From positions 1-30,723 of the IMG/VR virus record IMGVR_UViG_2648501461_000010: a DNA stretch of 30,723 bases. The stretch is one strand, 5' to 3'. The translations under genes were made by a program, and so were the position numbers. Of the stretch, positions 3,865 through 13,750 are shown one piece after another. Below the pieces are notes generated by a model. That model ran no database searches. It was not told the origin of the DNA and saw nothing but the letters and a program-made list of their open reading frames with translations. The first letter of the stretch is position 1. The number at the start of each line of letters is the position of its first letter. Source of the DNA: a virus (lineage: Duplodnaviria; Heunggongvirae; Uroviricota; Caudoviricetes).

Positions 3865-4137
3865 ATGCTAGATAGCACTCGCGAAAAAATTAGGCAGAAA
3901 TACACTCAAGCTGAAATAGGTCGTTATATGGGGGTCGCTCAACAGACTGTTTGGCAATGGTTTAGCTTTGACGTTCCCCCAAAGCAGGTAATTCCGTTAT
4001 GTCAGCTAATGAAGTGGGAAGTTACCCCGCATGAAATTCGCCCTGATATTTATCCTAACCCAACCGACGGTTTACCTGTTGGATTCAAGGTTAACACATC
4101 AAATGCACCGGAGCTGATTCATGAAAATCAAGCATGA
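3865..4137 (+). CDS. Cro-like HTH regulator (YdaS/DicC-like)
   Basis: 90-aa protein with an HTH (YTQAEIGRYMGVAQQTVWQW); divergent from the repressor; strong RBS GAGGAGAG; followed by a YdaT homologue as in Rac. Confidence 0.7.
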   Translation: MLDSTREKIRQKYTQAEIGRYMGVAQQTVWQWFSFDVPPKQVIPLCQLMKWEVTPHEIRPDIYPNPTDGLPVGFKVNTSNAPELIHENQA

Positions 4138-4546: not shown

Positions 4547-4617
4547 CTGACAATAGCCATATCGAATCGCTTCCGGCAACTCGTGAGTAAAAAGATTCGG
4601 TATCAGAAGAGGTGAGT

Positions 4618-5688
4618 ATGGCTAACGCCTGGCTCAGATTATGGCATGACATGCCAAATGACCCTAAGTGGCGAACAATTGCCAGGGTGTCAGGGCAGCC
4701 AATTGCAACAGTGATGGCAGTGTATATCCACCTCCTGGTGAGCGCGTCACGAAATGTCACGCGAGGTCACATTGATGTCACGACAGAAGATTTGGCAAGT
4801 GCGCTCGACGTGACAGAAGAGGTAATTGATTCAATTTTGCAGACGATGCAGGGGCGGGTACTTGATGGTGATTTAATCACTGGATGGGAAAAACGCCAGG
4901 TGCTTAAAGAGGACAACGGCAATATTTCGCAAACCGCAAAATCTCCTGCAGAGCGCAAGAGGGCGCAGCGAGAGAGGGAAAGAAAGCGGGAACAAAATGG
5001 CGATTGTCACGGCGCGTCACGAAATGTCACGCACATGTCACGACGAGTCACGACAGATAAAGATACAGATAAAGATACAGATCAAGAAGATCAAAACACT
5101 ATGGTCCATGGCGTAAAAAACGCCACGAACCAGGCAGGGGATGTTCAGACCGTCAATCTTGGTCAGCCAGCAGGCACGACACCGGAAGCCGATTCAGCGT
5201 ATGCGCTGAAAGCCGATTCGGGCGCTGTGCAGCAGGTGATGACCGCAAGGCCGGAGCAATCACACCAACTGCAGCAGCCTGAAGCCGATTCCGCCATTCA
5301 GCGGGAAGCCGATCGGGTAGTCCCGGAAAACACCGGGCAGCCTGTGGGACGAGTGGATTATCCGGATGTGTTCGAACAGGTCTGGCGGGAATACCCGTTG
5401 CGTGCTGGGGCAAACCCGAAGAAATCCGCTTTCAGTGCCTGGAAGGCCAGATTACGCGAGGGGGTGCCACCAGAGGCCATGCTGGATGGTGTGAGGCGTT
5501 ACGCAAGATACCTGGCGGCTACCGGGAAAACGGGAACGGAATTTGTTCAGCGAGCGACGACGTTTTTTGGACCGGACCGGAATTTTGAAAACCCCTGGTT
5601 GCTCCCGGTAAGCGGCACGAACAACCAGCGTTGTGTGAATCATATTTCTGAACCGGATAACGAAATTCCGCCGGGCTTCAGGGGGTAA
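4618..5688 (+). CDS. replication initiator / replisome organizer (O-like)
   Basis: N-terminus (ANAWLRLWHDMPNDPKWRTIARVSG) fits the phage replisome-organizer motif; the coding sequence contains two iteron arrays and an AT-rich tandem repeat, as lambda O contains ori. Start placed at the ATG at 4618 (RBS AGAGG); the ORF track uses the GTG at 4612. Confidence 0.65.
   Translation: MANAWLRLWHDMPNDPKWRTIARVSGQPIATVMAVYIHLLVSASRNVTRGHIDVTTEDLASALDVTEEVIDSILQTMQGRVLDGDLITGWEKRQVLKEDNGNISQTAKSPAERKRAQRERERKREQNGDCHGASRNVTHMSRRVTTDKDTDKDTDQEDQNTMVHGVKNATNQAGDVQTVNLGQPAGTTPEADSAYALKADSGAVQQVMTARPEQSHQLQQPEADSAIQREADRVVPENTGQPVGRVDYPDVFEQVWREYPLRAGANPKKSAFSAWKARLREGVPPEAMLDGVRRYARYLAATGKTGTEFVQRATTFFGPDRNFENPWLLPVSGTNNQRCVNHISEPDNEIPPGFRG
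4742..4784. repeat. iteron array 1 (GTCAC repeats) inside the initiator gene
   Basis: GTCAC at 4746, 4756, 4766 and 4777, spaced 10-11 bp; the 21-bp unit GCGCGTCACGAAATGTCACGC recurs at 5012. Confidence 0.6.
5002..5093. repeat. iteron array 2 plus AT-rich tandem repeat (candidate replication origin)
   Basis: GTCAC at 5006, 5016, 5026, 5037 and 5047 at about 10-bp (one helical turn) spacing, followed by tandem GATAAAGATACA x2 and an A-rich tract. Confidence 0.6.
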
Positions 5689-5728
5689 GTGTTAATTTCT
5701 GGTCATGAGGTAATTTTCAGGAGGGCTT

Positions 5729-6154
5729 GTGGCAAAAGTTTTTACACAAGAAGAGCGGGAAAAAATTAAAGGGCAGGTTCTTGAACTCGTACGCCAGAGT
5801 GGGCGCGAGACGTTACGACAACTGGAAGCTAAAACTGGGGCAACAAGATATCTGATGAGCGTTCTGGCCAGAGAGCTGGTTGCCAGTGGCGATGTATACA
5901 ACTCTGGTTACGGGTTATTCCCGTCTGAACAGGCGCGTAAGGACTGGCAAAATGCCCGTAAAAAGCTCTCAAGGGCAAAGCTGAATAAACCATCTGCGGT
6001 TGATCCGGACCTTATCTGGTCGTTACCAGACGGCGAAATACGCCGCTACGACAGGCGCCTGAATATAATCTGTCGCGAGTGCCGGAAGAGCGAAGCTATG
6101 CAGCGTGTACTGGCATTTTATCAAGGAAATGTTAGGTATTTTAGACGTTACTAG
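5729..6154 (+). CDS. hypothetical protein (141 aa), possibly winged-helix, downstream of the initiator
   Basis: GTG start with RBS CAGGAGGG; basic protein with no recognised family; sits where a helicase loader (P/DnaC-like) would usually be. Confidence 0.5.
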   Translation: MAKVFTQEEREKIKGQVLELVRQSGRETLRQLEAKTGATRYLMSVLARELVASGDVYNSGYGLFPSEQARKDWQNARKKLSRAKLNKPSAVDPDLIWSLPDGEIRRYDRRLNIICRECRKSEAMQRVLAFYQGNVRYFRRY

Positions 6155-6307
6155 ATTAAAGAGCATTAGTTCAGATGTGAATTGACATTTTCATGGCGCA
6201 GGGTAGAGCCAGCGTGGTTGTCCGCTTTGCGTCAAAACCAGATATTACCAGATTTAGACATATATTCCCGATAGCCCTGCTCTGATGCTACACTCTGTGC
6301 TATTTTC

Positions 6308-6994
6308 ATGACCCCAATAAAAATATTTATGACTATTGCTGATTTCAAACGGCCTAAATTGGAGCTCCCAAACGGGGCAAACAAACTACTACTGCACTCT
6401 TGCTGTGCTCCATGTTCCGGTGAAGTGATGGAGGCGCTTCAGGCCTCGGGAATCGACTACACCATCTTTTTCTACAACCCGAACATTCATCCTCAGAAAG
6501 AGTATTTAATTCGTAAGGATGAAAATATTCGCTTTGCTGAACAACACGGCGTGCCGTTTATCGATGCTGATTACGACACCGACAACTGGTTTGAACGTGC
6601 CAAAGGAATGGAATGGGAGCCTGAGAGGGGGATCCGTTGTACCATGTGTTTTGACATGCGTTTTGAGCGGACAGCGTTGTACGCTGCTGAAAATGGTTTC
6701 AGTGTGATCAGCAGTTCACTGGGCATTTCACGCTGGAAAAATATGCAGCAGGTTAACGAGTGTGGGCGGCGAGCTGTTGCGCATTATCCGGGTATGGTGT
6801 ACTGGGATTATAACTGGCGCAAGCAGGGCGGCTCGTCCCGTATGATTGAAATCAGCAAGCGCGAAAAATTCTATCAGCAGGAATATTGTGGCTGTGTGTA
6901 TTCTCTGCGCGATACCAATCTACACCGCAAATCTCAGGGGCGCCCTCTTATCAAAATTGGCCAACTCCACTACGGAAAAGAAGAGAAGGAGTGA
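6308..6994 (+). CDS. queH: epoxyqueuosine reductase QueH (DUF208 family)
   Basis: N-terminal [11 protein letters not shown] motif plus downstream conserved Cys residues and a size of about 225 aa are characteristic of QueH. Alternative start ATG at 6329. Confidence 0.75.
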
Positions 6995-7231
6995 TTTTAT
7001 GGATCACCTTTCTGATTGATTTCATATTGGCGAGGTGACGTGAGTTAAGTAGAATTGCTGCGGGTGCTTGAGGCTATCTGCCTCAGGCATGAACACCAAA
7101 AGGCAGATAGAGAAAAGCCCCAGTTAACATTACGCGTCCTGCAAGACGCTTAACATTAATCTGAGGCTCAATCCATGCTGAACACATGTAGGTTAGCCTC
7201 TTACGTGCCGAAAGGCAAGGAGAAGCAGGCT

Positions 7232-7387
7232 ATGAAGCAGCAAAAGGCGATGTTAATCGCCCTGATCGTCATCTGTTTAACCGTCATAGTGACGGCACTG
7301 GTAACGAGGAAAGACCTCTGCGAGGTACGAATCCGAACCGGCCAGACGGAGGTCGCTGTCTTCACAGCTTACGAACCTGAGGAGTAA
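7232..7387 (+). CDS. Hok/Gef-family type I toxin
   Basis: MKQQKAMLIALIVICLTVIVTALVTRKDLCEVRIRTGQTEVAVFTAYEPEE matches the Hok consensus (transmembrane helix, LTRK..LCE, EVA..AYE); RBS AAGGAGAAG; followed by the typical structured 3' end and terminator. Confidence 0.8.
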   Translation: MKQQKAMLIALIVICLTVIVTALVTRKDLCEVRIRTGQTEVAVFTAYEPEE

Positions 7388-9271: not shown

Positions 9272-10089
9272 GACTGGAAGATTTACCGAAATACTATTCC
9301 CCAAAATCGCCAGGCCTGACTGATGCATCCGTCTCGACGTCAAAAGATGCGCTGAGCATCACTGATGTGATGGCTGCGCAGGGTATGACACAAAACCGGG
9401 CTGAGATGGGATTTTCTGCGTTCCTGGGGAAAATGGGTATTAGTATGAATGACAGGGCGCGGGCAACAGAATTACTGGCAGATTATGCATTAAGTCAGTG
9501 CGATCGCGTGGCGGCGTTAAGAAAACTTCCGGCAGAAATAAAACCGGCAGTGATGCGCATTATGGCTTCGTATGCTTTTGAGGATTATGCCCGCAGCGCA
9601 GCGAGTAAAAAGCAGTGCCCCTGTTGCCGAGGGGAAAAATTTATTGAAAGCGAAGTTTTTACAAACAAGGTTCAGTATCCGGATGGCAAGCCGCCAGTAT
9701 GGGCAAAGTGTACGAAAGGTGTGTATCCGTCTTACTGGGAAGAATGGAAAAAAATCCGGGAGGTGGTGAAAGTTTCTTGTCCTGAATGTAAAGGGAAGGG
9801 GGAGATTTCCACTGCCTGTAAAGACTGCCGTGGGCGTGGTGTTGCCATTCATCGTGAAGAGTCGGAAAAACGGGGTATGCCTGTAATCAGGAACTGCCAG
9901 CGTTGTGGCGGTCGGGGCTATGAAAGACTACCATCAACGGAGGCATTTAATGCCATACGCAAAGTGACGAGTGCTATCACGCTTGATACGTGGAAAAAAT
10001 CAGTGAAACGCTTTTACGATACGTTGGTGGTTCGGTTTGACATTGAAGAGGCATGGGCGGAGCGGCAGTTAAAGAGGGTAACGCGATAG
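9268..10089 (+). CDS. late-gene antiterminator Q (zinc-finger type)
   Basis: 273 aa with repeated CxxC zinc-finger motifs (CPCCRGEK, CPECKGKGE, CKDCRGRG, CQRCGGRG); positioned between rusA and the late promoter/lysis region; start overlaps the rusA stop (ATGA). Confidence 0.7.
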   Translation: MRLEDLPKYYSPKSPGLTDASVSTSKDALSITDVMAAQGMTQNRAEMGFSAFLGKMGISMNDRARATELLADYALSQCDRVAALRKLPAEIKPAVMRIMASYAFEDYARSAASKKQCPCCRGEKFIESEVFTNKVQYPDGKPPVWAKCTKGVYPSYWEEWKKIREVVKVSCPECKGKGEISTACKDCRGRGVAIHREESEKRGMPVIRNCQRCGGRGYERLPSTEAFNAIRKVTSAITLDTWKKSVKRFYDTLVVRFDIEEAWAERQLKRVTR

Positions 10090-10094
10090 TGTTG

Positions 10095-10122
10095 TTGATT
10101 TTTCCCGAATCTGTGGTAAATT
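10095..10122 (+). promoter_or_regulatory. candidate late promoter pR' (with qut region)
   Basis: TTGATT, 16-bp spacer, TAAATT immediately downstream of Q, followed about 50 nt later by a terminator, as in the lambdoid pR'-tR' arrangement. Confidence 0.35.
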
Positions 10123-10171
10123 TGCTCTAACGATGGGCGTTTTATGCCTGACGTTAGAAGGATTTTTACAG

Positions 10172-10194
10172 CCCGCCATCGAGCGGGTTTTTTA
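10172..10194 (+). terminator. candidate tR' terminator downstream of the late promoter
   Basis: Stem CCCGC / GCGGG with a 6-nt loop followed by a 7-T run. Confidence 0.5.
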
Positions 10195-10266
10195 TATCTG
10201 GAAAGCGGTGCATAACGTTAAACGTGATGGCGATTGCGCAATGAGTTTCTCCTGCTCTGAAGTCTC

Positions 10267-10296
10267 TTGACTGCATGGAATCTCCTTTGTTATGTA
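10267..10296 (+). promoter_or_regulatory. candidate sigma70 promoter for the membrane cargo gene
   Basis: TTGACT, 18-bp spacer, TATGTA, about 30 nt upstream of the ORF start at 10329 and downstream of tR'. Confidence 0.3.
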
Positions 10297-10328
10297 AGAT
10301 GAGTTGATGTTTTAAAATTGTTAGAGAG

Positions 10329-11048
10329 ATGGGTATGGATGACAGCACTCTGCTGAGGAACTCTTCACTTTTTATTGCTTATATGGGCTGTCTTGGATGG
10401 GGAAGCGCTTATTTCTATGGATGGGGGACTTCCTTTTACTATGGCTTTCCATGGTGGATCGTCGGGGTTGGCGTTGATGATGTGGCCCGAAGTTTGTTTT
10501 ATGCTGTGAGCGTTATCGTTATATTCCTTACTGGATGGGGAGTAGGTATTGTTTTCTTTTTAGGCATAAAACAAAAAAACAATATACAGAATTTGAGTTT
10601 TATCAGACTTTTTCTGGCAATATTGCTGCTTTTTATTCCGCCTGTTCTGGAGTTTTCGGTAATTCATCAGCACGTTGAGCCAGATGTGCTGTTTTTTTGT
10701 GTTATTGCTGCCTTTACAATTACGCTTTTTGTCAGGTCAGGAAGAAGACTTATTTCAGTCAAATGTTTTTCGGAAGTGTCTTTTATTCGCCATCACCGAA
10801 TTGAGTTTATTATGGCTGGATTCATGATTTATTTCTGGACATTCTCTCTTATTGCCGGTTGGTATAAACCCCAGTTTAAGAGGGAATATCAGACGATCCA
10901 CTATGAGAATACTTGGTATTACGTTCTTGCACGCTATGATGATCGTCTGGTTTTATCGAAATCGTACAGTAATGGGAGTTCTGCATTCGTTATACTTAAT
11001 AGCGGGCAGATTGATGACTTTGAAATTAATGTAGTCAGAGTTCGTTAA
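10329..11048 (+). CDS. hypothetical integral membrane protein (about 5 predicted TM helices plus a C-terminal soluble domain), cargo gene in the Q-to-lysis slot
   Basis: 239-aa ORF that is markedly AT-rich relative to its flanks; hydrophobic stretches around residues 12-32, 55-78, 90-108, 118-135 and 158-176, then a roughly 60-aa polar C-terminus. No family recognised. Confidence 0.6.
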   Translation: MGMDDSTLLRNSSLFIAYMGCLGWGSAYFYGWGTSFYYGFPWWIVGVGVDDVARSLFYAVSVIVIFLTGWGVGIVFFLGIKQKNNIQNLSFIRLFLAILLLFIPPVLEFSVIHQHVEPDVLFFCVIAAFTITLFVRSGRRLISVKCFSEVSFIRHHRIEFIMAGFMIYFWTFSLIAGWYKPQFKREYQTIHYENTWYYVLARYDDRLVLSKSYSNGSSAFVILNSGQIDDFEINVVRVR

Positions 11049-11132
11049 TATTGCCTGAGTAACTTTCTGTTGACCGCTCAGATTCTTTTATCATGTGTAG
11101 GCCAATATGCAGGATTTAATCAGGGTAGGGTA

Positions 11133-11161
11133 TTGCAGAGCTAAACTGGCATAAGTATTAT
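11133..11161 (+). promoter_or_regulatory. candidate sigma70 promoter of the tRNA cluster
   Basis: TTGCAG, 17-bp spacer, TATTAT, ending 9 nt before the first tRNA. Confidence 0.45.
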
Positions 11162-11170
11162 TCCGCATAT

Positions 11171-11246
11171 GGCCCTTTAGCTCAGTGGTGAGAGCGAGCG
11201 ACTCATAATCGCCAGGTCGCTGGTTCAAATCCAGCAAGGGCCACCA
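11171..11246 (+). tRNA. tRNA with CAU anticodon (tRNA-Ile2 type, lysidine-dependent, or tRNA-Met)
   Basis: 76-nt cloverleaf by manual folding, anticodon loop CUCAUAA, 3' CCA encoded; close to my recollection of E. coli ileX. Confidence 0.8.
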
Positions 11247-11247
11247 A

Positions 11248-11324
11248 CCGCCACTAGCTCATCAGGAAAGAGCGTCAACCCTTTAAGTTGAGAGTGCGAG
11301 GTTCGAGTCCCCGGTGGCGGTCCA
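11248..11324 (+). tRNA. tRNA-like gene, anticodon UUU (Lys) with atypical C33
   Basis: 77-nt cloverleaf by manual folding: 7-bp acceptor stem, D-loop with GG, TPsiC loop UUCGAGU, encoded CCA; anticodon stem UCAAC/GUUGA with loop CCUUUAA. Position 33 is C instead of the near-universal U, and the T-stem has one A-C mismatch. Confidence 0.55.
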
Positions 11325-11326
11325 GT

Positions 11327-11402
<76 letters not shown>

Positions 11403-11405
11403 TAT

Positions 11406-11480
<75 letters not shown>

Positions 11481-11687
11481 GTCAGAGTCTTTCAGTCTGC
11501 GATGATGGGAAATCCCGGAGTGACTGAAAGACGTTTAAGTTATGAATGATCGCCTTTTTTTGCAAAATTGCTGTGCAGAAATACTAACCTTCGGGCAGGC
11601 GATCATTCATAAGCACTCTGCTTTTATTCCGATCAACTGTGGGTGGTTTGTTGGATAGAGTGCTTTCCTTTCTGTATATATCGTTTC

Positions 11688-11711
11688 GCCCGCTTTTGCG
11701 GGTTTTTCTTT
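11688..11711 (+). terminator. rho-independent terminator between the tRNA cluster and the lysis genes
   Basis: Stem GCCCGC / GCGGG(T) with loop TTTT followed by TTTTTCTTTT. Confidence 0.5.
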
Positions 11712-11772
11712 TCAAATCCCTTTCATTTCTCAGTGTAAAACTACGCCATCCGTTATTTGCGGAGGTGAGGCT

Positions 11773-11988
11773 ATGAAATCCATGGACAAAATTTCAACGG
11801 GCATTGCCTACGGCACCTCCGCAGGCAGTGCTGGCTACTGGTTTTTACAGTGGCTTGATCAGGTCAGTCCGTCACAGTGGGCTGCGATTGGTGTTCTGGG
11901 GAGTCTGGTTCTGGGCTTCCTGACTTATCTGACAAATCTGTACTTCAAAATCAGAGAAGACAAGCGTAAGGCTGCACGGGGAGAGTAA
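11773..11988 (+). CDS. S: class II holin (phage 21 S-like pinholin) with dual-start motif
   Basis: 71-aa protein [71 protein letters not shown] closely matches my recollection of phage 21 S; Met1 and Met4 give the antiholin/holin dual start; RBS GGAGGTGAGG. Confidence 0.85.
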
Positions 11989-11992
11989 TTCA

Positions 11993-12307
11993 ATGACTCA
12001 AAACTATGAACTGATTGTGAAAGGGATCCGCAATTTTGAGAATAAAGTTACGGTAACTTTAGCGTTACGGGACAAAAAACGCTTTGACGGTGAAATTTTT
12101 GACCTGGACATCTCGCTGGACCGTGTTGAAGGTGCAGCGCTGGAGTTTTATGAGGCAGCAGCCAGAAGGAGCATCAGACAGGTCTTCCTGGATGTTGCTG
12201 CCGGGTTATGTGAAGGGGACGAGCTGTTGCCAGAAACGCGCCCCTGTTCAGAGGCGCGGTATACCATAAAAATTAACAGTTCTGATAACTCGATTACAGG
12301 TTGTTAG
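11993..12307 (+). CDS. hypothetical soluble protein (104 aa) inserted between holin and endolysin
   Basis: ORF starting 5 nt after the holin stop with an RBS (GGGGAGAG); no TM segment, no recognised family; not part of the canonical S-R-Rz cassette. Confidence 0.5.
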   Translation: MTQNYELIVKGIRNFENKVTVTLALRDKKRFDGEIFDLDISLDRVEGAALEFYEAAARRSIRQVFLDVAAGLCEGDELLPETRPCSEARYTIKINSSDNSITGC

Positions 12308-12362
12308 CTTTTTGCAGTTGGCTTTCCAGTATCTTTCATTGGTAGCATCCTGATAAATATCC

Positions 12363-12896
12363 ATGAGCGCAAAAATCAAATACGGCCTGTCAGCTGCGGT
12401 TCTGGCGCTGATTGCTGCAGGTGCGTCTGCTCCTCAAATACTTGACCAGTTTCTGGATGAAAAAGAAGGTAACCACACAACGGCATACCGCGATGGGGCC
12501 GGCATCTGGACCATCTGTCGGGGTGCCACGATGGTGGATGGAAAACCCGTTTTTCCCGGTATGAAACTGTCGAAGGAAAAATGCGACCAGGTCAACGCCA
12601 TTGAGCGTGATAAGGCGCTGGCATGGGTGGAGCGCAATATTAAAGTACCAATGACCGAACCACAAAAAGCGGGTATCGCGTCATTCTGTCCCTATAACAT
12701 TGGCCCCGGTAAGTGTTTTCCGTCGACGTTTTATAAGCGGCTGAATGCCGGTGATCGTAAGGGCGCATGCGAGGCGATTCGCTGGTGGATAAAAGATGGT
12801 GGGCGCGATTGCCGCATACGTTCAAATAACTGCTATGGACAGGTTATTCGTCGTGACCAGGAAAGCGCATTAGCCTGTTGGGGGATAGATCAGTGA
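12363..12896 (+). CDS. R: SAR endolysin (T4-lysozyme-like muramidase, GH24)
   Basis: N-terminal Gly/Ala-rich weakly hydrophobic signal-anchor-release segment ([17 protein letters not shown]) and a Glu-8aa-Asp-5aa-Thr catalytic triad (E...YRDGAGIWT); pairs with the pinholin. Confidence 0.85.
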
Positions 12897-13357
12897 GCAG
12901 AGTCGCCGCGATTATTTATGCTCTGGTTATTTGCATCATCGTCTGCCTGTCGTGGGCGGTCAATCATTACCGTGATAACGCCATCGCCTACAAAGAACAG
13001 CGTGATAAAAAAGTCAGTGAGCTGAAGCAGGCGATCGCCACCATCGCTGACATGCAGCAGCGTCAGCGTGATGTTGCTGCGCTCGATGCAAAGTACTCGA
13101 GAGAATTAGCCAATGCGAAAGCTGAAAATGAAACTCTGCGCGCTGATGTTGCCGCTGGTCGTCGTCGGTTGCACATCAAAGCAGTCTGTCAGTCAGTGCG
13201 TGAAGCCACCACCGCCTCCGGCGTGGATAATGCAACCAGCCCCCGACTGGCAGACACCGCTGAACGGGATTATTTCACCCTCAGAGAGCGGCTGATGACG
13301 ATGCAGATGCAACTGGAAGGGGCACAGGAGTATATCCGCACTCAGTGCATTAAGTAG
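12893..13357 (+). CDS. Rz: i-spanin Rz
   Basis: GTG start overlapping the endolysin stop (AGTGA); N-terminal TM helix then coiled-coil region; contains an embedded Rz1 gene in the +1 frame. Confidence 0.8.
13113..13295 (+). CDS. Rz1: o-spanin Rz1 (outer-membrane lipoprotein)
   Basis: Embedded within Rz in an alternative frame; lipobox LVVVGC and a proline-rich stretch (KPPPPPAW), typical of Rz1. Confidence 0.8.
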
Positions 13358-13399: not shown

Positions 13400-13750
13400 A
13401 TGCCATCACGAATCCCACGCGCCTGCCGTAAGCGTGGATGTGTAGGTACAACCACAGACAGTTCTGGTTACTGCGATAAACATCGTGGCGAAGGATGGGT
13501 ACAGCATCAACGCGGACTGAGCCGCCACCAGCGTGGCTATGGCTCGAAATGGGATGCCATACGTGCGCGCATACTGAAGCGTGATAATCATCTGTGTCAG
13601 AACTGCCTGCGCAATGGGAGAGCCGTTGAAGCCAGAACTGTGGACCACATCATTCCGAAAGCTCATGGTGGCACGGATGCAGACAGTAACCTGCAGAGTC
13701 TGTGCTGGCCCTGTCATAAAGCAAAAACAGCGCGCGAACGCATCAATTGA
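13400..13750 (+). CDS. HNH endonuclease (terminase-associated)
   Basis: Cys-rich 116-aa protein with HNH motif (DHIIPKAHGGTDADSNLQSLCWPCHKAK); located just upstream of the terminase small subunit, as in HK97-like cos phages. Confidence 0.85.
   Translation: MPSRIPRACRKRGCVGTTTDSSGYCDKHRGEGWVQHQRGLSRHQRGYGSKWDAIRARILKRDNHLCQNCLRNGRAVEARTVDHIIPKAHGGTDADSNLQSLCWPCHKAKTARERIN

Follow-up and report, generated by a model that had tools for sequence, protein, structure and literature searches.

Between the late antiterminator gene Q and the lysis genes, lambdoid phages possess a hot-spot, 3' of the late promoter pR' and its terminator tR', in which interchangeable cargo modules are carried: Shiga toxin (Stx) and LT-II toxin genes, a DNA methylase, tRNAs and the NanS esterase all occur in this Q-to-S interval. 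The subject of this study is another occupant of the hot-spot, a gene of the STM1630/TfpB family in the IMG/VR virus record IMGVR_UViG_2648501461_000010 (positions 1 to 30,723; "the window" hereafter denotes this whole stretch of 30,723 nucleotides). Whereas the familiar cargo consists of soluble secreted toxins or enzymes, the product here is a predicted integral membrane protein whose gene has a candidate promoter of its own. The gene forms a discrete insertion, recurs directly after Q in many phages and is under purifying selection; as its role we tentatively propose superinfection exclusion at the inner membrane.

Experiments on this family concern only STM1630 of Salmonella, which has its own mapped transcription start site and has been studied as a macrophage-upregulated gene (PMC6785131), and which is co-regulated with Salmonella pathogenicity island 2 (SPI-2; PMC2639726). 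The orthologue (P0160, 238 amino acids (aa)) is 48% identical to the window protein over 100% of its length and has the same predicted architecture, and STM1630 too is an AT-rich, horizontally acquired single gene; however, it is a chromosomal islet gene, divergent from sseJ and outside any prophage late operon, and it shares no homology with the E. coli gene in the region upstream. In phage 434 (CPT_434_68, "putative membrane protein") and in an O157:H7 prophage (homologue WP_001302581.1), by contrast, the gene stands where it does in the window, right after Q and tR' and before the lysis genes. The phage 434 protein is 57% identical over 99% of its length, and the upstream block TTGACG...TTTGTTATG is shared; the antiterminator there is of the unrelated Q82 type, though, and what comes next is TciB/DUF3927, then a small membrane protein and the NanS esterase, instead of tRNAs.

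Three further groups of proteins invite comparison. The TfpB proteins of pilin-inversion loci are homologous at profile level (P0125, E=9.3e-18 against the enteric profile; about 24% identity) and have the same length, the same pattern of transmembrane (TM) helices and the motif AYxYGWG..YYGxPWW, but the copy in a metagenome locus described below (L121) lies inside an invertible pilin segment without phage genes, whereas the window gene has no pilin nearby. HK97 gp15, P22 SieA and T4 Imm appear comparable as small inner-membrane products of accessory genes that act alone and block genome entry; no sequence kinship with them is detectable, they differ in size and number of TM helices, and their genes sit in immunity, early or tail regions instead of the Q-to-S slot. 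Finally, the TfpY/FimB-like proteins of Pseudomonas, Acinetobacter, Neisseria and Dichelobacter, which are encoded beside pilin genes, bind pilins and act in the inner membrane, have a similar plan: about 235-245 aa, a cytoplasmic N-terminus, N-terminal TM helices and a periplasmic beta-rich C-terminal domain (PMC11841053). Their TM helices number three and their periplasmic domain is larger and made of two sheets, as against five TM helices and a single domain of about 55 aa here; the window protein has no Pfam match to them, the window contains no pilin gene, and only the L121 relative is linked to pilins. The TfpY/FimB-like proteins are an analogy, not relatives.

A discrete insertion under purifying selection

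The window is the right arm of a lambdoid prophage, with the gene order DUF968, RusA, Q, cargo open reading frame (ORF), four tRNAs, P21-type holin, YdfR/DUF1327, lysozyme, Rz, HNH, terminase, and head and tail genes, and its positions 10090-11170 are 100% identical to chromosomes of extraintestinal pathogenic E. coli (ExPEC), for example IHE3034, the uropathogenic E. coli (UPEC) strain 26-1 and strains of sequence type 95 (ST95). Comparison with two sister prophages delimits the insertion. In one of them (L015) the slot is empty, tR' being followed by about 35 bp and a tRNA-Ile gene; in the other (L016) it holds a hypothetical protein and a DNA methylase. The tR'-like terminator is kept in both, homology with the empty-slot prophage stops just past it, and homology with the sister prophages returns about 40 bp before the first tRNA; from this divergence and resumption the cargo module is therefore placed at about 10198-11129. 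The content of the slot thus varies among related prophages (empty, hypothetical protein and methylase, or the gene studied here), which a preliminary description of this stretch, made by reading it without database searches, had named as a point to check.

That description had also proposed a 239-aa ORF, more AT-rich than its flanks, in the slot between Q and the lysis genes, and in all of this it was right. Q ends at 10089, the pR' and tR' elements follow, and the tRNAs and lysis cassette lie downstream. The ORF runs from 10329 to 11048 on the plus strand (239 aa), and a second ATG at 10335 would give 237 aa; the shorter product is probable because a Shine-Dalgarno-like GAGAGA run 5 nt 5' of this ATG, the RefSeq start and all homologue alignments point to 10335. 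The GC content of the ORF is 39.4% (38% at third codon positions); the window as a whole has 51.2% and each of the 5-kb flanks about 51%, and the drop in the GC profile, to 0.37-0.40, is confined to about 10300-11200. Two attributes of a phage moron are accordingly present, a discrete insertion between contiguous flanks and a distinct base composition; the module has no terminator of its own, a point considered with the proposed function.

Across 53 distinct alleles the pooled ratio of nonsynonymous to synonymous substitution rates (dN/dS) is 0.22, indicating purifying selection, and the constraint is unevenly spread. It is strongest in the first periplasmic loop (dN/dS 0.03, with 97% amino-acid identity), followed by TM1 and TM2 (0.09-0.12), while TM3, TM4, the second cytoplasmic loop and the beta domain lie at 0.25-0.33; TM4 and the cytoplasmic loops vary across alleles. 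For the second periplasmic loop the value is about 1.2, but with only seven codons this loop is too short for interpretation. The gene is functional, not a chance ORF, and its most constrained surface is predicted to be periplasmic.

A sizeable share of the database alleles are frameshifted or truncated (P0072, P0075, P0093 and many "partial" entries), and because so many are broken, the gene seems to have decayed repeatedly in some lineages despite the overall purifying selection. In E. coli KE51 (NZ_CP141080.1, 2285861-2287717) the otherwise identical region is split into two matching pieces, and an IS1 transposase is annotated at the matched position; the split and this annotation therefore point to an interruption by the insertion sequence (IS) IS1. 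Such losses, together with the lack of a reported phenotype, are what might lead one to regard the gene as a selfish passenger without current function in its host, kept by prophage linkage alone; the dN/dS of 0.22 with its region-specific constraint, full-length conservation across bacterial orders and the conserved -35 box of its candidate promoter all speak against this, and of the explanations considered here we hold it the least probable. A hairpin inside the gene (10668-10701, a 9-bp stem and TTTTTTT, in the codons of the TM3-TM4 loop) was considered as an attenuator and rejected, as it is not kept in the allele of enterotoxigenic E. coli (ETEC); because it is absent there, it is probably due to chance.

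Family, predicted topology and candidate promoter

The preliminary description had recognised no family for the protein, and here it must be corrected. The window protein is identical to WP_000342820.1, which RefSeq names "STM1630 family protein"; it matches phrog_1521 over residues 19-239 (PHROGs, E=6.5e-86); the precomputed Pfam family PF27470 ("TfpB") is assigned to all 96 homologues (full-length matches at E<=1e-3); and the gene in the same slot of phage 434 is already annotated. Local searches of Pfam-A and of NCBIfam release 20 gave no family for the ORF, as both appear to be without the model. The family is small, amounting to 70 clusters (50% identity) out of 1.84 billion representatives, and is recognisable at profile level; its named members come only from Enterobacterales, Pasteurellaceae and Neisseria, and all belong to animal-associated genera except Mangrovibacter phragmitis. 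In the literature found, no paper mentions either the accessions or PF27470, and the TfpB motor of Acinetobacter is an unrelated namesake. As an object the gene is therefore not new, being already catalogued in a named, widespread and uncharacterised family. No sequence or fold search ties the protein to any characterised protein: a profile search against PDB sequences returned only noise at E>1, and a fold search of the predicted model gave no informative match. The match to a previously characterised membrane protein that the preliminary description had set against its own reading was thus not found in the profile and fold searches, because the family that was matched is itself uncharacterised.

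About five TM helices and a C-terminal domain had likewise been predicted, and both hydropathy and an AlphaFold model agree. In the hydropathy profile TM2-TM5 are clear, and TM1 is rich in aromatic residues and glycine. The model, built from 49 sequences that take in members from Neisseria, Pasteurellaceae and a Klebsiella clade, has a predicted local distance difference test (pLDDT) score of 80.3 and a predicted template modelling (pTM) score of 0.74, whereas a model from close homologues alone is poor (pLDDT 62). Its helices span 4-36, 47-78, 89-111, 116-135 and 155-181; residues 142-153 form a short amphipathic segment, and a beta domain of about 55 aa with five strands occupies 184-235. 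The mean number of lysines and arginines over the 49 sequences is 0.04 in loop 37-48, 2.67 in loop 78-88 and 3.51 in loop 135-156; by the positive-inside rule these counts imply an N-in, C-out topology, in which the YYGFPWW turn and the beta domain would be periplasmic. This aromatic, glycine-containing turn between TM1 and TM2 is almost invariant. TM1 carries a family-wide small-xxx-small ladder at 21/25/29/33/37 alongside aromatic positions, Y26 and Y195 are invariant, small residues occupy 21/25/33/37 in at least 48 of the 49 sequences, and P39 is kept in 46 of 49. The signature of the family is present in full, namely a length of about 240 aa, the motif AYxYGWGxxxYYGxPWW and a C-terminal beta domain with YY(V/I)L.

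The promoter that the preliminary description had thought plausible remains so, and its sequence is conserved. Position 10267 is the first base of a TTGACT -35 box, and a -35 box CTCTTGAC(T/G) and a TTTGTTATG block are kept at an unchanging distance from each other in the window, in an ETEC plasmid and phage 434, and in E. albertii and another Escherichia, although the proteins of these loci are only 57-78% identical; upstream of the phage 434 and ETEC homologues the form is TTGACG...TTTGTTATG. Among 31 distinct upstream variants from 80 IMG/VR viral contigs, box and block are kept in 30, while the neighbouring bases vary. Judged from this sequence pattern, 10267-10296 is probably an extended -10 sigma-70 promoter. 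The conserved block was also considered as a CII-type site and set aside, the TTGC-N6-TTGC pattern not being evident by eye. In the phage 434 record, the depositors marked matches to the CII-binding-site consensus at 3954-3967, just upstream of the homologue, and at 4609-4622, inside it.

Distribution of relatives and possible functions

Among the 80 IMG/VR loci, the gene lies directly 3' of Q and on the same strand in 70, behind two unrelated types of Q. In one locus (L033) a methylase gene separates it from the lysis genes downstream, and since both cargo genes are present there, modules in the slot can evidently stack. At the DNA level a relative is present in 1197 of 5426 complete E. coli genomes, at a median of two places per positive genome. 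This recurrent placement between Q and the lysis genes, in the orientation of late transcription, the lack of a terminator between the gene and the tRNAs, and the glycine/small-residue zipper of TM1, a feature common in oligomeric membrane channels including pinholins, would suit a late lytic-cycle function: the protein would be made mainly from pR' after induction and would work with the lysis cassette, for instance by forming a channel or modulating the holin so as to set the timing of lysis, or by blocking superinfection late. However, sister prophages with the same Q and lysis genes have an empty slot, from which it follows that lysis does not require the gene; plasmids and chromosomes without nearby phage genes carry intact members; and no holin or antiholin family is matched in Pfam or PHROGs, the cassette having its own PF04971 holin. 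We consider a late lytic role improbable.

The gene has moved between replicons, and its settings outside phages are varied. On ETEC plasmids of porcine and human origin (L010-L014 and L099; gene at 6001-6714 or 5001-5714) eltAB is preceded, at a distance of about 870 bp, by a homologue of 77-78% identity in the divergent orientation; this copy may be the remnant of a prophage Q-to-S slot. It is flanked by IS elements, and STb and EAST1 are nearby. Homologues are carried by 106 Shigella plasmids, and by plasmids of enteroinvasive E. coli (EIEC) as well; on Shigella flexneri p2016AM-0877 (L098, 6001-6717), the one such record examined, whose gene table is incomplete, about 5 kb separates a 58% identical homologue from the type III secretion region, on the side of spa40. 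In Salmonella the relative is divergent from sseJ, and its synteny with STM1632-1636 identifies it as STM1630. Elsewhere, a relative that carries a Klebsiella aerogenes name stands beside SRAP/umuDC on a metagenome scaffold, that of H. ducreyi is a singleton between an rpoH-like gene and mqo, and another (L100) lies among housekeeping genes. Because no neighbour is conserved across these settings, the protein appears to act alone and to need no partner gene.

The toxin- and effector-associated copies bear on a second explanation, in which the product serves the bacterium within an animal host, as a factor of lysogenic conversion or of the envelope. The protein would alter an envelope property, such as motility or the ability to withstand antimicrobial peptides and other host stresses, its gene travelling with virulence loci and not serving phage defence. 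It is in keeping with this that homologues lie near spa40 on Shigella plasmids and near eltAB on ETEC plasmids, and that the named members, M. phragmitis apart, come from animal-associated genera; adjacency to toxins and effectors, however, may only mirror shared IS-rich or phage-derived DNA. The Salmonella experiments are similarly divided. STM1630 is upregulated in macrophages (PMC6785131), and in the invasive ST313 strain D23580 it is less expressed inside macrophages because two single-nucleotide polymorphisms inactivate its promoter by hitting the -10 box (bioRxiv 10.1101/450098; PMC6785131), but SPI-2-like regulation is common for AT-rich horizontally acquired genes, and intramacrophage replication was cut only by deletion of STM2475, not by deletion of STM1630 (PMC6785131). 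An STM1630 deletion was hypermotile in one screen (PMC4219756), yet STM1630 is missing from the altered-motility mutants listed at the start of the abstract of the follow-up study (PMC4534456). An envelope role of this kind is doubtful on present evidence, though it is the nearest competitor of the explanation that we prefer.

A third explanation arises from the metagenome locus L121 (900-4220, ERZ1023440 NODE-90), where a distant member of the family, close to P0125, lies between two inverted pilin C-terminal cassettes and beside a Piv-like DEDD recombinase of the IS110 family. This locus is a pilin-inversion switch holding a relative of the window gene; we take its layout to match the tfpQ/tfpI-tfpB-piv arrangement of Moraxella, to which the Pfam family owes the name TfpB. 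The TfpB-family gene in L121 is split by an apparent insertion or frameshift. From the family name and the L121 setting, one might suppose that the protein is an accessory factor for type IV pilins or for the pseudopilins of type II secretion, binding these membrane-anchored proteins and modulating the pilus or secretion. The ETEC copies adjoin the genes of the heat-labile enterotoxin (LT), a type II secretion substrate, and the unrelated TfpY/FimB of comparable plan binds pilins (PMC11841053). On the other side, neither the window nor any enterobacterial locus examined contains a pilin gene, the other distant members are singletons among housekeeping genes, and the TfpY-like proteins differ in their three TM helices and periplasmic domain and give no sequence match. 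For the TfpB of Moraxella itself, no function is known to us. A pilin-related role seems unlikely.

We prefer superinfection exclusion at the inner membrane, as a tentative choice that we rank above the others. It comes first because characterised enterobacterial inner-membrane phage morons are mostly exclusion proteins or O-antigen modifiers (those of lambda, P22, HK97, T4 and the Shigella serotype-converting phages), because the protein appears autonomous, and because its expression in the lysogen is probable. The moron of about 930 bp, self-contained and set between tR' and the tRNA and lysis genes, belongs to a lambdoid prophage of Qin/HK97-like type in extraintestinal pathogenic E. coli. 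We hypothesize that in the lysogen it would be transcribed at a low level from its own TTGACT promoter, through the tRNAs, as far as the terminator ahead of the holin gene; and that after induction Q-modified polymerase would transcribe it strongly from pR'. The protein would act without a partner, at the periplasmic face of the inner membrane and on a conserved host component, and would block the genome entry of incoming phages at that membrane, as with HK97 gp15, P22 SieA and T4 Imm.

Several points weigh against exclusion. To our knowledge there has been no phage-challenge experiment for any family member. Searches of the 49 members against PHROGs and PADLOC gave no match to an annotated exclusion or defence family, and their PHROGs matches are to families of unknown function, bar one stray "tail protein" match in one of the 49. 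The functional reading offered by the preliminary description (superinfection exclusion, abortive infection or lysogenic conversion) gains no support from these searches or from the fold search, nor do they count against it. That the periplasmic loop is so strongly conserved, from E. coli as far as Neisseria, would suit a housekeeping target in the host, but taken alone is no pointer to exclusion. A strict consensus scan calls no promoter at the TTGACT box, because the -10 hexamer matches at only 3 of 6 positions, and the terminator scan found no terminator-like site at 11048-11171, hence none directly 3' of the cargo ORF; since no terminator separates them, the tRNA cluster would be co-transcribed with the coding sequence. 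In Salmonella, co-regulation with SPI-2 (PMC2639726) and upregulation in macrophages (PMC6785131) point towards host interaction over phage defence. A PADLOC match to AbiC in one of the 49 members (E=0.0037, 14.8 bits) was rejected as noise. On balance we place exclusion first and the host-interaction or envelope factor second, ahead of the (pseudo)pilin accessory factor, the late lytic function and the passenger.

Surroundings of the module and implications

The coordinates of the module and of the elements around it are collected in the table.

Table. Features of the cargo slot and its surroundings, in window coordinates.
Feature	Position	Strand	Basis and remarks
Late antiterminator Q gene, 273 aa	9268..10089	+	Pfam PF03589 Antiterm, E=1.4e-50; RefSeq "antitermination protein"; left neighbour of the slot
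pR'-like late promoter, TTGATT-16 nt-TAAATT	10095..10122	+	Read from the sequence, directly past the Q stop
tR'-like intrinsic terminator, 7-bp stem with 5 GC pairs, then TTTTTTAT	10170..10197	+	Terminator scan
Cargo module (moron), ~930 bp	10198..11129	+	Junction alignments against L015 and L016; boundaries approximate to ~20 bp
Candidate sigma-70 promoter: TTGACT 10267-10272, 18-nt spacer, TGt + TATGTA 10288-10296	10267..10296	+	Conserved block
Coding sequence, STM1630/TfpB-family inner-membrane protein (predicted), 237 aa	10335..11048	+	ORF list; WP_000342820.1; phrog_1521; PF27470 on homologues
tRNA cluster Ile-CAU (ARAGORN: Met), Lys-UUU, Thr-UGU, Gly-UCC	11171..11480	+	ARAGORN; Rfam RF00005; RefSeq
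Intrinsic terminator between tRNAs and holin gene, GCCCGCTTTTGCGGGT then T-run	11688..11713	+	Terminator scan
Lysis cassette: P21-type holin, YdfR/DUF1327, lysozyme, Rz with embedded Rz1-like ORF	11773..13357	+	Pfam PF04971, PF07041, PF00959, PF03245

The pR'-like element scores 8 of 12, under the cut-off of the consensus scan, and is near-identical among sister prophages whose slots differ in content; by analogy it may act like the pR' of lambda. The terminator ahead of the holin gene would halt promoter-driven transcripts, those formed without Q, before the lysis genes. An Rfam scan of 9800-12000 found only the four tRNAs and sub-threshold noise. All four tRNAs read A-ending codons. In the cargo ORF, 5 of 23 Ile codons are ATA, as against 11% elsewhere among the phage genes, and 7 of 17 Gly codons are GGA, as against 20%; AGA and AGG account for 7 of 13 Arg codons, for which the cluster holds no matching tRNA. 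In sister prophages, sets of Ile and Arg tRNAs replace the four-tRNA cluster.

Upstream of the DUF968-RusA-Q block are an ORF for epoxyqueuosine reductase QueH (6308-6994) and further accessory cargo, an ORF for a hokD-type toxin (7175-7387), both annotated from the identical RefSeq locus. Downstream of the lysis cassette, in the stretch 13400-13750, the HNH endonuclease gene lies directly 5' of a P27-family small terminase, which is followed by the large terminase, the usual layout of HNH-assisted cos packaging.

Relatives of this gene occur in roughly a fifth of complete E. coli genomes, frequently as more than one copy, and because the gene is under selection and appears to need no partner, its function should be easily testable. 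If nothing were found, it would be one more conserved hypothetical prophage membrane protein; if a function were found, a common unannotated part of the mobile gene pool of enteric pathogens would gain a role, and the historic tfpB open reading frame would be explained. More speculatively, and with clear reserve, we suggest that STM1630/TfpB may represent an unrecognised class of single-gene inner-membrane systems, moving among the prophage late operons, virulence plasmids, effector islets and pilin-inversion loci of animal-associated Proteobacteria, in which an invariant periplasmic aromatic loop would act on a conserved envelope machine (for example, the phage DNA-entry route or the (pseudo)pilin assembly platform) and so produce phage exclusion or another envelope phenotype relevant to infection.

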